From the NCBI GenBank assembly GCA_045605805.1, contig JAZUQR010000012.1, forward strand, positions 1 through 42,827: a DNA stretch of 42,827 bases, read 5' to 3'. Positions within the stretch are counted from its first letter, which is position 1. Each line of letters starts with the position of its first letter. This DNA comes from Alphaproteobacteria bacterium. Its GTDB lineage: Bacteria > Pseudomonadota > Alphaproteobacteria > CAAHEQ01 > UBA3637. The position numbers were made by a program, and so were the translations under genes. Positions 8,420-42,827 of this stretch are shown here, piece after piece. The notes below the pieces were generated by a model. That model did no database searches, was not told where the DNA came from, and saw only the letters and a program-made list of their open reading frames with translations.

Positions 8420-9835
8420 TTGGAAGAATTGCTTGCAGACGAAAAAAGAACACTTGAAGAATTGGAAGAATCCTATGATGATGCATTGGCGCAAATAAAT
8501 GGCAGAATTGAAGCATTACTTGCCCGGCAGGATGCCGATATGCAACACGTTATATATCAGGTGGAGTATCAACGGCAATTAAAAACGCAGGTGCAAGCAA
8601 TCCTTGAAACATTGCAGACCAATGAATTTGAAACGGTATCACAGTACCTTACAAGGGCATACGAAAATGGTTTCTTTGGTACCATGTACGATATACACGG
8701 CCAAGGAATACCGCTTATATTCCCGATTGACCAAGCACAGGTTGTAGATGCTATCCGGAACGAAACGAAGTTATCTGAAAACCTATACACAGCCTTGGGG
8801 CATGATATAAAAGACCTGCAAAGGAAGATTGCCGGGGAAATTAGCCGGGGAATGTCACAGGGAATGAGCTATGACCAAATGGCAAGGAACATTGCTGCAT
8901 GGGCTAGGGTACCACAGAATAACGCAATGCGGATAGCAAGGACAGAAGCCCACAGAATAGGGTGCAGGGCTACATTTGATGCACAGAATAAGGCAAAGGC
9001 CAAGGGTGCGGATGTAGTAAAACAATGGGATGCTTCCTTGGATGGCAACACAAGACCAAACCACCGCAAATTAGACGGACAGATTCGGGAAATAGATGAA
9101 CCGTTTGAAGTTGGTGGAATGAAGGCAATGTATCCTGGAGATTTCGGGGACCCGGCAGAAGATTGTAATTGCAGATGTGCATTGTTACAACGTGCAAGAT
9201 GGGCTTTGGGTGCGGAAGAATTAGAAACATTGAAACAACGTGCAGAAGTCATGGGTGAATACGATTCATACAATGAATTTAGGGAATCCTATAATAATGC
9301 ATTGAATGAATTATTTTCTGAAAGACAACGTGGTCTATCCGCAAAGATAGGCGGTGAAGGATTTATCCCGGAGCATGAAGAACCCAAACTTATGGGGCAA
9401 ATTGATTTTAATAATCAGGATGCTATCATGGAAACAGTGTTGGATTTTGAAAGGGGAGCCATCAATAATACTATTGAAGAAGCTTGTGTTATTACTTCTT
9501 CCGGAAATGTGTACCGTTGTTATGGTGTAGCAGACGGTGTATACCCGGACTATGACTTGAATGATGATTTAACAGGTGCTATAATATCCCATAATCATCC
9601 GATAGAAGAAACGGCATATTCATTCAGTAAAAACGACTTACAACTATTCTTGGACTATAACCTTAATACTTTGCGTGGGTGTGATGAAATATATACCTAT
9701 GAATTTACAAGGAATGCGGATGATGTTGATGAACCATTGGAAGATTGGTTTACGGAAGAAAATTATCAGCATAGTTTGATGATAGAAAAAGCATTGGAAT
9801 ATGGCATAGGATACAGGAGATGGAAGAATGAATAA
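8420..9835 (+). CDS. MuF/SPP1 gp7 minor head protein with C-terminal JAB/MPN-like extension (true start possibly ATC at 8396)
   Basis: RIARTE, KQWDASLDGNTRPNHRKLDGQ, CNCRC MuF motifs; the extension carries E...HNHP...SFSxxD. Confidence 0.8.
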   Translation: MEELLADEKRTLEELEESYDDALAQINGRIEALLARQDADMQHVIYQVEYQRQLKTQVQAILETLQTNEFETVSQYLTRAYENGFFGTMYDIHGQGIPLIFPIDQAQVVDAIRNETKLSENLYTALGHDIKDLQRKIAGEISRGMSQGMSYDQMARNIAAWARVPQNNAMRIARTEAHRIGCRATFDAQNKAKAKGADVVKQWDASLDGNTRPNHRKLDGQIREIDEPFEVGGMKAMYPGDFGDPAEDCNCRCALLQRARWALGAEELETLKQRAEVMGEYDSYNEFRESYNNALNELFSERQRGLSAKIGGEGFIPEHEEPKLMGQIDFNNQDAIMETVLDFERGAINNTIEEACVITSSGNVYRCYGVADGVYPDYDLNDDLTGAIISHNHPIEETAYSFSKNDLQLFLDYNLNTLRGCDEIYTYEFTRNADDVDEPLEDWFTEENYQHSLMIEKALEYGIGYRRWKNE

Positions 9836-32188: not shown

Positions 32189-32290
32189 ATGGATAACAAA
32201 AAACAACTTTTACAAATCATTGATGAAATGTCAGACAGTCAAATTCTTTTTATCCTTACATTTTTAAAAAGGATATTGGGGAAGGATTAA
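32189..32290 (+). CDS. 33-aa SOS-controlled peptide, candidate antirepressor
   Basis: GAAAGGAG RBS; MDNKKQLLQIIDEMSDSQILFILTFLKRILGKD; convergent on the repressor gene. Confidence 0.65.
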   Translation: MDNKKQLLQIIDEMSDSQILFILTFLKRILGKD

Positions 32291-32655
32291 GTCCTTTCCA
32301 CCAAAAAATGTACATATTCCCTTACCTGTGCCTTCTTTTGCTCATTCAGGGAATTATATTCTTCTAACATGATCTTCACTTCGGTATCTGTTTCTTTGAT
32401 TTCAATTCCAAGAAACAGGTCCGCTAATTTGTTTGCCGTTTCCACAGGCTTTTCTTCAATATCACTTACTAATTCCACAGGCGGTATATCAAGAATTTTT
32501 GATATTTTGGAGAGCACACTTCGTTTGATGTTCACAACCCTTCCTTTTTCGTATTTCGCAACGGCTGATTTTTGAACACCAATAAGCTTTCCTAATTCTT
32601 CTTGCGTATAGCCTTTTGCAATTCTTGCCTGTTTTATTTTTTCACCTATACTCAT
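32287..32655 (-). CDS. XRE-family prophage repressor (no S24 peptidase domain)
   Basis: IGEKIKQARIAKGYTQEELGKLIGVQKSAVAKYEKG HTH; divergent from cro. Confidence 0.9.
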   Translation of the reverse strand: MSIGEKIKQARIAKGYTQEELGKLIGVQKSAVAKYEKGRVVNIKRSVLSKISKILDIPPVELVSDIEEKPVETANKLADLFLGIEIKETDTEVKIMLEEYNSLNEQKKAQVREYVHFLVERT

Positions 32656-32680
32656 TCACCCACCACCTTTCTATACTTAT

Positions 32681-32709
32681 ATAGTACATCACTGTGTCTT
32701 AAAAATCAA
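32681..32709 (-). promoter_or_regulatory. Leftward (repressor) promoter
   Basis: TTGATT-17 bp-TACTAT on the minus strand. Confidence 0.6.
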
Positions 32710-32739
32710 ATATTATTTAAAAAGTATCCAAAAAAGATA

Positions 32740-32768
32740 TTGACACACAATTATTATTTTGATATAGT
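32740..32768 (+). promoter_or_regulatory. Rightward early lytic promoter
   Basis: TTGACA-17 bp-TATAGT with TG extension. Confidence 0.8.
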
Positions 32769-32772
32769 GAAA

Positions 32773-32789
32773 GTGTCCTAGAAAGACAC
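32773..32789. promoter_or_regulatory. Repressor/Cro operator
   Basis: GTGTCCTAGAAAGACAC; near-identical copy at 33280-33296, degenerate copies at 32724-32740 and 32694-32710. Confidence 0.75.
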
Positions 32790-32827
32790 AGGGAGAAAAA
32801 CAAGACACAGGAAGGTGGGGAAGGGCT

Positions 32828-32956
32828 ATGATGTATAACGTGTTAGAAGAAATTGAAAATTTAATGGACCAAGGATATTCAGAGGAACACGCAGAAGAAG
32901 TGGCAATGCTTAATAATTATGATATTCCTTTGGAAGATATGTTTGATTATAACTAA
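32828..32956 (+). CDS. Small highly acidic early protein (42 aa)
   Basis: Hand-translated MMYNVLEEIENLMDQGYSEEHAEEVAMLNNYDIPLEDMFDYN; G-rich RBS. Confidence 0.65.
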   Translation: MMYNVLEEIENLMDQGYSEEHAEEVAMLNNYDIPLEDMFDYN

Positions 32957-32989
32957 ACAATCACAGTTGACCTATCGACTATACCGGGG

Positions 32990-33051
32990 GTACTTAATGC
33001 AGCCTTCTATGTGAAGCAGGTCACAAGCCCTGATTGATGCAGAGTGAGTAC
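32990..33051 (+). ncRNA. Twister ribozyme (P1 type)
   Basis: P1 GUACU/AGUAC, L1 UAA, P2 UGCA/UGCA, GC, P3 CUUC/GAAG, P4 CAGG/CCUG with loop UCACAAGC, pseudoknot CAC/GUG. Confidence 0.85.
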
Positions 33052-33072
33052 ATAAAGGAAGGAAGTGAAAAA

Positions 33073-33279
33073 ATGAATAAAACCGAATTAAGAATTGTCA
33101 TGATGCGTAATGGTGACACAAACAAAGAACTTGCGGAGTGCTTGGGGATTACAGAACAGAGCGTGTCCGCAAAAATCAACGAAAATGGCACAGAGTTCAA
33201 GCAGGGTGAGATTGCTAAGATTAAAGAAAGATATAATCTATCCGCTGAACAAATTGAAGCTATTTTTTTTGCTTCATAA
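33073..33279 (+). CDS. Cro-like HTH regulator
   Basis: TNKELAECLGITEQSVSAKINENGTEFKQGEI...IFF. Confidence 0.85.
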   Translation: MNKTELRIVMMRNGDTNKELAECLGITEQSVSAKINENGTEFKQGEIAKIKERYNLSAEQIEAIFFAS

Positions 33280-33296
33280 GTGTCCTAAAAAGACAC
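33280..33296. promoter_or_regulatory. Operator copy directly after cro
   Basis: GTGTCCTAAAAAGACAC. Confidence 0.7.
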
Positions 33297-33365
33297 AATT
33301 TATATCGAATCGGGACAATCAGTAACGGCATAAGTTGATACATCAACAGAAAAGGAAGTGGTGCC

Positions 33366-33842
33366 ATGGGTAAGAATCAGGACATATATTCAGAACCAAA
33401 AGTATTTACATATGAAAATTGCATAGTGCGAGTGTATAGCCCGGTACTTACCGAAGAGGAAAGGGAAAGAAGAATGAATGCCCTTAAAAAAACCACCGCT
33501 AACTTTATGAAGGCGGTTATCGAGCAGGAAAGCCAATACAACGCATCTGCCGTGGGTGATGGCGGTAATTCAGTGGGATTGATGCAGATACAGGAGCGGT
33601 GGCACCGGGAACGGATGGACAGGCTAGGATGCACGGATTTAACCAATCCATACCAAAATATTGCGGTTGGGGTGGACTTGCTTGCGGAACTGTACGGAAT
33701 GAATCCGGATACCTATTGGGTGCTTATGGCCTATAACGGTGGAATTGATTATGCCAACAGAATGATGCAAACGGTTACATACAGCGAATATGCGGTGGAA
33801 GTGGTGGAAAGAGCAGATGAATTAGAAAGGAGCATGGAATGA
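33366..33842 (+). CDS. Lytic transglycosylase (SLT) domain fused to a small early phage protein
   Basis: AVIEQES, GLMQI, NI..G...L, AYNGG; the N-terminal VRVYSPVLTEEERERR segment is not SLT-like. Confidence 0.8.
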   Translation: MGKNQDIYSEPKVFTYENCIVRVYSPVLTEEERERRMNALKKTTANFMKAVIEQESQYNASAVGDGGNSVGLMQIQERWHRERMDRLGCTDLTNPYQNIAVGVDLLAELYGMNPDTYWVLMAYNGGIDYANRMMQTVTYSEYAVEVVERADELERSME

Positions 33843-33967
33843 AAGAAGTTGAAATTAGCAGCAAGTGTGCAGGGGAATTGACCGTGGAAGAAGCAATGAA
33901 GTTGCACAAATTAGGATATGAATTTGTAGTGGAAGATGGGGTGGTTACTCATGTTTTACACGGATGA
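33839..33967 (+). CDS. Small hypothetical protein (42 aa)
   Basis: GAAAGGAG RBS, ATGA overlap; MKEVEISSKCAGELTVEEAMKLHKLGYEFVVEDGVVTHVLHG. Confidence 0.55.
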   Translation: MKEVEISSKCAGELTVEEAMKLHKLGYEFVVEDGVVTHVLHG

Positions 33968-34145
33968 TCCATTGGCTGATTATTCCCGGTATTGTGCAAA
34001 GCAGGAAGAAGAGTTGAAAAAGATGCCAATATGCAGGGAATGCGAAGAACACATTCAGGATGAAAAAGCATATCACATAGATGATAAATGGATATGTGAA
34101 AGCTGCATGGAAAATTTCCATGAAGATGTACAGCCGATTTACTAA
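33951..34145 (+). CDS. Small zinc-finger protein
   Basis: DDPLADY...CRECEEHI...ICESC. Confidence 0.7.
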   Translation: MFYTDDPLADYSRYCAKQEEELKKMPICRECEEHIQDEKAYHIDDKWICESCMENFHEDVQPIY

Positions 34146-34185
34146 AAAACAAAAGATACCAACACAGAATATATGAAGGGTATCT

Positions 34186-35001
34186 ATGAAAGAATTTAAG
34201 TCATTTTATAAAGAAGTCGCAGGAAACGAAGGTGGCAAATGTCACTACAACACAAGGCTTGATGCGTATGGGTGCGGATGCCAACATGATTGTTCCTATT
34301 GTTACGCAAAATCCCTTCTGAATTTCAGAAACCTATGGGATGCAAAGGAACCTTCGGTGGCAGACATAAGGAAGATTGAAAGAAAGATTGCAAAGATTCC
34401 TAAGGACAGCATCATCCGGCTTGGGGGCATGACAGATTGCTTCCAACCATGTGAAGAAGAATACCGCATCACAAAGGAAACCATAAAGATATTGAATCAA
34501 TATGGAATCGGCTATCTGATAGTAACGAAATCCGATTTGGTTTGCGAATATATGAACCTATTGGACAAGCAGAAAGCCCATATTCAGGTAACAACAACCT
34601 GGGTGCCATGTGAAAAAGCGGTAAGCACAGAAAGAAGAATCAGAGCCATTGAAACTCTATATGCAGAAGGTTTTGATGTGGCGGTTAGGTTATCGCCTTA
34701 TATACCACAATTTGTGGATTTTGAACGGCTTAACAGTATCAAATGCAACAAAATAATCGTTGAATTTTTGAGAGTAAACCATTGGATTGAAAAGTGGCTA
34801 CCGCTTGATTATTCCGATTATACCGTGAAGCAATCTGGATATAGGCACCTGCCTTTGGAAAAGAAAATAGAATACTTGGCCAAGGTCACAGGCTTTGATG
34901 AAGTTTCAGTTTGCGAAGATGTGACAGAACACTATGAGTATTGGAAAGAAGCGGTGAACCATAACAAAGAGGATTGCTGCAATTTAAGGGTGGCACTATG
35001 A
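34186..35001 (+). CDS. Radical SAM protein (spore photoproduct lyase-like family)
   Basis: GCQHDCSYCYA (CxxxCxxC), GGMTDCFQP, IVTKS, VRLSP. Confidence 0.85.
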   Translation: MKEFKSFYKEVAGNEGGKCHYNTRLDAYGCGCQHDCSYCYAKSLLNFRNLWDAKEPSVADIRKIERKIAKIPKDSIIRLGGMTDCFQPCEEEYRITKETIKILNQYGIGYLIVTKSDLVCEYMNLLDKQKAHIQVTTTWVPCEKAVSTERRIRAIETLYAEGFDVAVRLSPYIPQFVDFERLNSIKCNKIIVEFLRVNHWIEKWLPLDYSDYTVKQSGYRHLPLEKKIEYLAKVTGFDEVSVCEDVTEHYEYWKEAVNHNKEDCCNLRVAL

Positions 35002-35642
35002 AGGTGCTAGAACTATTCGCAGGAACACGAAGTATCAGTAAAGCGTTTGAAGCAAAAGGTCATGAAGTGTTCACTGTGGAATGGAACAAGGATTTTGAAA
35101 ACATCAATCTTTATGCGGATATAGGGACCATCACCGCAGAAGAAATTCTGCAAAAATTCGGGAAACCGGATGTGATATGGGCTTCGCCTGATTGTTCTAC
35201 ATTTAGTGTTGCAGCCATAAGCCATCACAGAAAGAAAAACCATATAACAGGGAATCTTGACCCGGTGAGCGAATATGCGAAGTTTTGTGATGAAGTGGAC
35301 AAGCACGTTTTGCAACTTATTAAGGATTTACAACCACAATTCTACTTTATTGAAAATCCAAGAGGGGCAATGCGAAAAATGCAATGGATGAAGGACTTGC
35401 CAAGGTACACGGTTACATATTGCCAGTATGGCGAAAAAAGGATGAAACCAACAGATATTTGGACAAACCATCCGAATCCACAATTTAAACCACCTTGCAA
35501 GAACGGTGATCCGTGCCACGAAAAAGCACCAAGGGGAAGCCAAACAGGAACGCAGAGATTGAAAACAGCAACAGAAAAAGCGGTAATACCGCAACAGTTA
35601 TGCGAACACATAGTTGATATATGTGAAAAATACATATTTTAA
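34998..35642 (+). CDS. DNA cytosine-5 methyltransferase-like protein 1
   Basis: VLELFAG (motif I), DVIWASPDC (motif IV variant), FIENP (motif VI), YCQYG...KPT. Confidence 0.8.
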   Translation: MKVLELFAGTRSISKAFEAKGHEVFTVEWNKDFENINLYADIGTITAEEILQKFGKPDVIWASPDCSTFSVAAISHHRKKNHITGNLDPVSEYAKFCDEVDKHVLQLIKDLQPQFYFIENPRGAMRKMQWMKDLPRYTVTYCQYGEKRMKPTDIWTNHPNPQFKPPCKNGDPCHEKAPRGSQTGTQRLKTATEKAVIPQQLCEHIVDICEKYIF

Positions 35643-42448: not shown

Positions 42449-42827
42449 CTTTGTGTTGGATAATGCTATAAATGCGTATGAACATACAGCGGATTCGGCA
42501 CTTGATAGATGCACTCTTGATTTTTTAAAAGAATTGAGAAAATACAGAAAAGCCGAGGATGAAGGGTTGCTGTTAAGACCAAAATGCAGACTTGGGGATA
42601 TTGTATATGCGTTATGGAGTGTTCCAACGGAATCAAAGTATGTGATATATCCGGCAGAAGTAAAAGAAATCAATTTATCTTCTACCAATGCACAAAAGAT
42701 GCTTATGTATAAACTTGAACCTATTGCTTTTCGTGGCAGATATAACAAGTATTATGATGATGATTTTGGGAAGTTGGTGTTTATGACGGAAGAAGCAGCA
42801 GAGCAGGCATTGAAGCAGATGGGAGAG
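42423..42827 (+). CDS. Hypothetical phage protein spanning the circular junction (stop TGA at 29-31)
   Basis: MERLT...EDEGLLLRPKCRLGDIVY...FGKLVFMTEEAAEQALKQMGE; the frame is closed by TGA at 29-31 once the ends are joined. Confidence 0.75.
   Translation, partial: MERLTARNNFVLDNAINAYEHTADSALDRCTLDFLKELRKYRKAEDEGLLLRPKCRLGDIVYALWSVPTESKYVIYPAEVKEINLSSTNAQKMLMYKLEPIAFRGRYNKYYDDDFGKLVFMTEEAAEQALKQMGE
42800..42827. repeat. Terminal direct repeat, copy 2
   Basis: Identical to 1-28. Confidence 0.95.

Follow-up and report, generated by a model that had tools for sequence, protein, structure and literature searches.

A Probable Twister Ribozyme before the mor Gene of a CI/MOR-Type Phage Switch and Its Association with Inserted Cargo Genes

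Overview

A type-P1 twister motif lies directly upstream of a MOR-like gene in the CI/MOR-type switch of a temperate phage assembled from an alphaproteobacterial genome. The stretch analyzed, called the window below, is the whole of contig JAZUQR010000012.1 (GCA_045605805.1, Alphaproteobacteria bacterium, UBA3637), 42,827 nt in length. The element is a genuine twister, probably active in self-cleavage. Comparison with related viral loci supports a simple rule: apart from a few exceptions, a self-cleaving ribozyme is present at this position where accessory genes (“cargo”) have been inserted between the lytic promoter and mor, and absent where they have not. Taken as a whole, these observations seem best explained, with fair but by no means full confidence, by a twister acting within the early lytic RNA, whose cut would have been selected and would uncouple mor from the inserted cargo genes.

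The Twister Element

The P1-type architecture, in which two pseudoknots T1 and T2 join L1/L2 to L4, is class-defining for twister, together with about ten strongly conserved nucleotides in L1/L4 and a conserved A 3′ of the scissile bond, according to PMC5408937. The sequence at 32990-33051 (+) is as given in the preliminary description of this DNA, which was made from the letters alone and assigned it to the P1-type twisters. This assignment has been borne out by the covariance model, by covariation among six twisters occupying the same position and by 124 phage motif matches. Both pseudoknots that it had recognized (CAC/GUG and GC/GC) are found again in the covariance-model alignment and in the covariation, and its cleavage position agrees with the site predicted by the model. 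The main segments are listed in Table 1.

Table 1. Features of the window around the twister element and the switch
Feature	Position	Strand	Basis
Large serine recombinase (phage integrase)	30386-32107	-	Pfam Recombinase 1e-22, Resolvase 2e-07; PHROG 95 integrase 1.3e-80
CI-like XRE-family HTH repressor, 122 aa, divergent from lytic operon	32287-32655	-	Pfam HTH_3 6.9e-15; PHROGs transcriptional repressor/regulator families
Lytic (rightward) promoter-like site, TTGACA-17-TATAGT, TG extension	32740-32768	+	11/12 sigma-70-like consensus; putative function
Operator-like palindrome GTGTC-N7-GACAC at predicted transcription start	32773-32789	.	Exact-copy search
42-aa acidic ORF, cargo gene between promoter and ribozyme	32828-32956	+	ORF
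25-nt block just 5′ of P1	32965-32989	+	Identical in L072; predicted weak hairpin
Type-P1 twister ribozyme (probable)	32990-33051	+	RF03160 full-model match; predicted cleavage between 32995 and 32996
P1, 5 bp	32990-32994 with 33047-33051	+	Sequence and cmscan alignment
Cleavage-site motif TAA	32995-32997	+	Sequence and cmscan alignment
P2	32998-33001 with 33038-33041	+	Sequence and cmscan alignment
Pseudoknot T2, GC with GC	33002-33003 with 33027-33028	+	Sequence and cmscan alignment
P3, short stem	33005-33007 with 33013-33015	+	Sequence and cmscan alignment
P4	33017-33019 with 33030-33032	+	Sequence and cmscan alignment
Pseudoknot T1, CAC with GTG	33022-33024 with 33044-33046	+	Sequence and cmscan alignment
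Purine-rich Shine-Dalgarno region of mor	33055-33065	+	Sequence; conserved in L072
MOR-like HTH gene, 68 aa, cro position	33073-33279	+	Pfam DUF739 1.6e-05 (below cut-off); MOR profile
Second operator-like palindrome, directly after mor stop codon	33280-33296	.	Also flagged terminator-like

The Rfam model RF03160 (twister-P1; Roth et al. 2014, as summarized in PMC5408937) is aligned by cmscan over all of its length (model positions 1-68 of 68) to 32991-33050 of the window. An Infernal search with this model had been proposed earlier as a check. The E-value is 5e-12 in a 251-base search, 5.8e-12 in the genome and 8.5e-10 over the whole 42.8-kb window, the last being far beyond chance; the score of 55.1 bits falls 12 bits short of the curated Rfam gathering score of 67.2. 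A default Rfam search at gathering thresholds thus lists nothing in the window. The four other twisters scored at this position (58.6-60.5 bits) also lie below the gathering score. In the 1.21-Mb genome that contains the window, the twister-P1 copy number is 1.

No non-canonical pair is flagged in the cmscan alignment of the window copy. The conserved positions of L1 and L4 are matched, the exceptions being a covarying T1 pair and one compensated P4 pair, and two linker positions outside L1/L4 deviate from the twister-P1 consensus. T1 reads CAC/GTG where the RF03160 consensus has CCC/GGG, yet this is the commonest phage form (81 of 124 among the matches listed). The element also differs from the family in its short P3 (3-4 bp) and in the linker before the 3′ strand of P2, which ends in GA and not AA; among the matches listed, GA is carried by 7 of 90 distinct phage twisters and AA by the remaining 83. 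A plain minimum free energy fold, which is blind to pseudoknots, recovers P1-P4 with a stability no better than that of shuffles (z = 0.14).

The Switch Locus

The gene following the twister had been called cro in the preliminary description. A classical Cro is not what is found: a profile of four homologues matches PDB 6TO6/6TRI “MOR” with an E-value of 9e-14 over residues 3-68, nearly full length, so that the gene in the cro position, with its DUF739 match, is to be regarded as a homologue of MOR, the anti-repressor of the TP901-1 type. The twister had been said to end about 20 nt before the downstream ATG; the spacing from the end of P1 to the mor ATG at 33073 is 21 nt. Its proposed location in the early lytic transcript is supported indirectly, by the 11/12 promoter-like site on the plus strand and by a terminator scan that found no terminator-like site between this promoter and 33280, so the twister is predicted to be part of that RNA. 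An internal promoter at TTGACC 32967 was considered and rejected, since no -10 hexamer of acceptable quality accompanies it and the promoter scan did not call it.

The lytic promoter-like site is also kept in a related IMG/VR contig (L072) and in a paralogous switch of the same genome, both described below. Two exact copies of the palindrome GTGTC-N7-GACAC occur in the window, against 0.2 expected. In most related loci, counting from mor, a palindrome of this type is found at -38 to -116 and again at +206/207. Three palindromes are present in many relatives; the window has two, one at the promoter and the other directly behind the mor stop codon.

The integrase lies 0.9 kb from the twister, which is the only ribozyme of the window in an Rfam search with E up to 1. 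Both contig ends carry an exact 28-nt direct repeat (1-28 and 42800-42827) and the integrase is placed mid-contig, so the contig probably represents a complete, circularly assembled phage genome of some 42.8 kb rather than an integrated prophage; the GC content is 40.2%. Directly after mor, the early operon continues with genes for an SLT lytic transglycosylase, a radical-SAM protein and a C5 cytosine methyltransferase (33366-35642), which is an unusual early-gene set. In the late-gene region, a weak match to the Rfam flpD RNA at 8972-9015 (+) (30.2 bits, gathering 40, E 0.0039) is probably due to chance. A distant blastn search of 32200-33900 against the phage collection gave no match.

On the host side, twister-P1 was matched at E up to 0.001 in 2 of 101 host-relative genomes, the source genome included, and in none over the cut-off. 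The twister is thus phage-borne and not a host feature. A second switch of this family is present in the same genome, on contig C16 (L123:1450-2300, minus strand), with a repressor, a promoter, a mor paralogue and two palindromes. Its repressor-to-mor distance is 156 nt, with no inserted ORF and no ribozyme. The C16 palindromes have the same GTGTC/GACAC arms with a 6-nt spacer, versus 7 in the window; cross-immunity between the two phages is possible, though by no means assured.

Cargo Insertion and Ribozyme Presence

Four aligned MOR-like proteins served as the query for related viral loci, of which 47 were returned; the divergent repressor could be placed upstream of mor by tblastn in 44 of them. 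Short leaders, with 157-258 nt between the repressor and mor start codons, are seen in 35 of these 44 loci and correspond to 22 distinct intergenic sequences. The core motif of twister or hammerhead is absent from all 35, as judged by motif regular expression only for 32 of them and by Rfam search as well for three (L153, L154, L164). Covariance-model searches took in 16 of the 47 related loci.

The remaining nine loci have long leaders (447-1624 nt) holding inserted cargo ORFs. In seven of the nine, Rfam models detect a ribozyme in this slot, its end lying some 25-30 nt short of mor: four twisters (L115, L142, L143 and L166, 58.6-60.5 bits) and three type II hammerheads (L125, L144 and L145, 43-53 bits for a gathering score of 37). 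L147 has a weak slot hammerhead (29.7 bits, E 0.0078), with a twister 590 nt upstream, and L163 is an exception to the cargo rule, with a 447-nt leader and no ribozyme in an Rfam search with E up to 10. Two further loci, L136 and L137, bear a slot type II hammerhead over the gathering score, their repressor lying beyond the sequence compared. The window (418 nt, twister), L064 (twister) and C16 (156 nt, none) fit the same leader-length pattern. These locus counts overstate independence, owing to the relatedness of the loci and the poor resolution of the MOR tree; a search of the genome contigs with the MOR-like alignment gave no relative.

The ORFs inserted vary from locus to locus, and most have no annotation; one (in L144) is a Lar-like restriction-alleviation protein. 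The 42-aa ORF of the window belongs to a family with 41 other protein clusters of 71-98% identity and similar length, none of them annotated, and an alignment search of metagenome contigs and genome contigs gave no relative. In an unrelated phage (L171), the same ORF belongs to a densely packed operon and is not followed by a ribozyme. The 42-aa ORF alone does not, therefore, call for a ribozyme. A second, minimal twister without P3 (35.7-47.1 bits) was also observed in three loci (L137:441-491, L166:1337-1387 and L147:1907-1962), roughly 0.6-1 kb to the 5′ side of the ribozyme next to mor; a portion of the cargo thus lies between two self-cleavers.

The closest view of cargo exchange is given by L072, a 6.4-kb IMG/VR contig with the same switch (the same contig as L115). 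The repressor region is 77% identical to that of the window and the twister and mor block 86%. In between, an unrelated 60-aa ORF stands in place of the 42-aa ORF, and homology restarts 25 nt upstream of P1. The L072 twister (59.8 bits) differs from the window copy by two P1 pairs, both fully compensated, and by two linker bases, with no disruptive change. As read from its gene order, L064 is an independent example of a twister before a mor-family gene: a tyrosine integrase, an XRE repressor, a divergent promoter, two unrelated small ORFs, the twister, a Shine-Dalgarno sequence and a DUF739 gene follow in order, and T1 of this twister is CGC/GCG.

Covariation and Class Replacement in the Slot

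The six slot twisters were compared pair by pair. Pairing holds in 98.0% of 102 pair cells, versus 22-50% in slid controls, and compensation is seen in 5 of 17 pairs, including one in T1. By element, paired cells amount to 96.7% in P1, 100% in P2, P4 and T1, and 91.7% in T2. Single T2 changes, a G-T wobble in L142 (2408-2472) and an A/C mismatch in L166 (2408-2472), indicate that the constraint is not absolute. Combined, these two changes would make a compensated pair, and they may represent decay or an intermediate state.

Ribozymes of different classes are found between the same flanks. The twister loci L143 and L142 share both flanks with L144, which has a hammerhead, and the twister locus L166 likewise with the hammerhead locus L137. 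Directly before the twister, L142, L143 and L166 retain the first 25 nt or so of a hammerhead, namely its 5′ core segment and one hairpin (about 2383-2407; L143:2375-2412). The second half of the hammerhead is missing, and the twister stands in its place. Since the relatives with the same flanks carry an intact type II hammerhead, the hammerhead appears to have been replaced in place by a twister. A tree was built from 49 MOR-like proteins after one row had been left out on account of its length, and good support is reached by 2 of its 26 inner branches. The twister and hammerhead labels need three changes each on this tree, and the well-supported branches impose a minimum of two for either label. 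Both ribozyme classes even occur with one set of identical MOR proteins. On these comparisons, the class of the ribozyme at the slot does not matter.

Twisters in Phages at Large

A core-motif scan of IMG/VR returned at least 113 stretches, and the IMG/VR loci together with the window copy hold at least 140 motif matches, 124 of them with the 3′ half in place. Among these 124 matches listed, the middle pair of T1 is A-T in 81, C-G in 24, T-A in 10, G-C in 6 and non-Watson-Crick in 3, Watson-Crick pairing being thus kept in 121. An ORF start preceded by a Shine-Dalgarno sequence is found no more than 40 nt after P1 in 60 of the 85 unique phage twisters with a P1 stem among the matches listed. 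In the 67 listed twisters with a start within 150 nt, the median spacing from P1 is 18 nt, compared with 21 nt in the window. Pfam annotation of 58 distinct downstream ORFs, also among the matches listed, yielded AbrB/MazE (7), Mu Gam (6) and DUF739 (3), as well as XRE HTH proteins, one CII-like and one DnaC-like protein. By this annotation, the genes downstream of phage twisters are early-operon genes.

The 40 nt upstream of P1 tend to fold stably, with a median z of -1.61, compared with -0.04 in a control region lying another 150 nt upstream (paired Wilcoxon p = 3e-8, matches listed); this statistic was obtained on 81 of the 85 twisters (four dropped, having no upstream sequence), with mononucleotide shuffles and on related loci. 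The hairpins before the slot twisters of L064 and L143 reach a z of about -3.1, that of L143 being the retained hammerhead stem. A stable structure at this place could cap the upstream product. Although this is a general tendency among phage twisters, an upstream hairpin was rejected as part of the window element, the predicted hairpin in 32965-32989 (-5.7 kcal/mol) being not significant (z = 0.14).

Some phage loci (L056 with four copies, L063, L071 and L073) show twister-like 5′ halves, from the cleavage motif through L4, running directly into a Shine-Dalgarno sequence and a start codon. The 3′ strands of P2, T1 and P1 do not follow downstream, and these half-twisters may be circularly permuted (type P5) or truncated variants.

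Functional Interpretation

Transcription from the lytic promoter, starting at about 32776, would pass through the 42-aa cargo ORF, the twister and mor. Self-cleavage between 32995 and 32996 would then split the early RNA in two. The first product would be a short cargo message ending in a 2′,3′-cyclic phosphate, and the second the mor and early-gene message, with its 5′-OH buried in the compact twister fold, 21 nt before a constant ribosome-binding region. The selected function would be the cut itself, by which mor expression may be uncoupled from the inserted accessory genes, as by a natural insulator. The cut is put forward as the selected function because the ribozyme tracks the cargo, two unrelated classes fill the slot and the spacing to the Shine-Dalgarno sequence is nearly constant. 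Insulation by unmasking of the ribosome-binding site is not supported: in a model that ignores pseudoknots, the predicted unpaired probability of this site goes from 0.80 before cleavage to 0.63 after it in the window, and from 0.81 to 0.68 in L072, hence high in both states. A broader proposal, which we hold more tentatively, as something short of an even chance, is that these ribozymes are class-interchangeable insulators, allowing accessory or anti-defense cassettes to be inserted before mor with MOR dosage undisturbed. They would be acquired with the cargo, and a decayed copy would be replaced by one of another class, as in the change from hammerhead to twister.

In the glmS riboswitch, the 5′-OH cleavage product is a preferred substrate of RNase J (RNase J1). 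With this precedent in mind, the twister might work as a negative element, cleavage lowering the mor and early mRNA through RNase J attack on the 5′-OH product and biasing the switch toward lysogeny. The host does encode an RNase J (TIGR00649, 406 bits, just over the cut-off), and MOR dosage matters in CI/MOR switches according to PMC7250872. Nevertheless we judge such a role unlikely. Ribozymes are found only with inserted cargo and in none of the 35 short-leader switches (32 of them judged by motif only), which is hard to square with a general role in MOR dosage. The host encodes an RNase E/G homologue as well, and a search of its genome for RNase Y gave none; with RNase J and RNase E/G both present, the 5′-OH product could be stabilized or destabilized, and the RNase set is uninformative as to the direction of the effect.

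An equally improbable reading places the benefit on the cargo side, the ribozyme giving the accessory message a defined 3′ end behind a hairpin, or a limited lifetime, with no selected effect on mor. It would account for the stable folds in the 40 nt upstream of P1 in the phage twisters listed (median z -1.61) and before the slot twisters of L064 and L143, as well as for the second twister about 1 kb upstream in L137 and L166, which brackets part of the cargo. The upstream-fold statistic comes, however, from mononucleotide shuffles and related loci, and the window hairpin itself is not significant. Between the window and L072, moreover, the cargo changes while the twister stays with mor, and the slot keeps a near-constant distance from the mor start. 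Least probable of all, and by a clear step, is that the element has no present function, being either an inactive relic or carried along neutrally by recombination. Relics do survive here, as the dead hammerhead remnant in three loci attests, and the score below the Rfam cut-off, the minority GA linker and the T2 substitutions of some slot twisters would be compatible with decay. But in a block that is 86% identical to L072, two P1 pairs are compensated and no change is disruptive, all conserved L1 and L4 positions are intact, and the slot, instead of being left empty, has been taken over by another ribozyme class.

Relation to Known Systems

That twisters occur near prophage genes is not new. 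In bacteria, twisters and hammerheads are found in common gene neighborhoods close to phage genes, where the exact motif seems unimportant (PMC6765202), and the processing of polycistronic RNA has been suggested for prophage hammerheads and twisters without being established (PMC3088659, PMC6765202). The nearest precedent is that of Perreault et al. 2011 (PMC3088659), in which hammerheads near prophage integrases flank variable genes. The resemblance lies in a self-cleaver near an integrase and small variable genes, anti-restriction genes among them (ardA there, a Lar-like ORF in L144 here), in the processing of polycistronic phage RNA proposed for them, and in the type II hammerheads that fill the slot of the window in its relatives. 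Their clusters comprise several ribozymes flanking genes or blocks, whereas the window has a single one of another class, two being found in L137, L166 and L147. The position in the window is also specific, directly before mor of a CI/MOR switch and tied to cargo between promoter and mor; cro or the lysis-lysogeny switch is not mentioned in the text of PMC3088659, supplements aside.

The haloviruses HF1/HF2 carry a hammerhead 13 nt upstream of their first early gene, likewise a few nucleotides before an early start codon, and a mapped transcript 5′ end falls within 3 nt of the hammerhead cleavage site (PMC3088659). As described there, these differ in being archaeal lytic viruses whose ribozyme is a hammerhead variant, and they lack both a repressor/anti-repressor switch and a cargo gene upstream. 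The lactococcal phage TP901-1 has in common with the window a divergent CI-like repressor and a MOR homologue (PMC7250872). Of the three CI operators in its CI/MOR switch, one lies distally within mor (PMC7250872), and the putative operator palindromes of the window, at the promoter and past mor, recall OL/OR and OD of TP901-1 in their placement. The operator sequence differs, and the available text of PMC7250872 mentions no ribozyme or inserted ORF between promoter and mor. RiboJ, a synthetic insulator, is similar in that a self-cleaver between promoter-proximal sequence and the ribosome-binding site makes downstream expression context-independent; it differs in being engineered and hammerhead-derived, and in removing a short 5′ UTR and not a translated cargo gene (PMC6206723). 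The slot before mor in a CI/MOR switch, the tie to cargo and the in situ replacement of hammerhead by twister were not found in print, although supplements may list such contexts.

Biological Significance

As to the role of bacterial and phage twisters and hammerheads, reviews go no further than noting their location near phage genes and a possible part in processing polycistronic RNA (PMC6765202). The present locus and its relatives form a compact, testable system on a small genetic switch. Natural variants exist without ribozyme and cargo, with cargo and twister, with cargo and hammerhead, and with a dead hammerhead replaced by a twister, so that the effect of the cut on mor and cargo mRNA and on the lysis-lysogeny decision can be asked directly.
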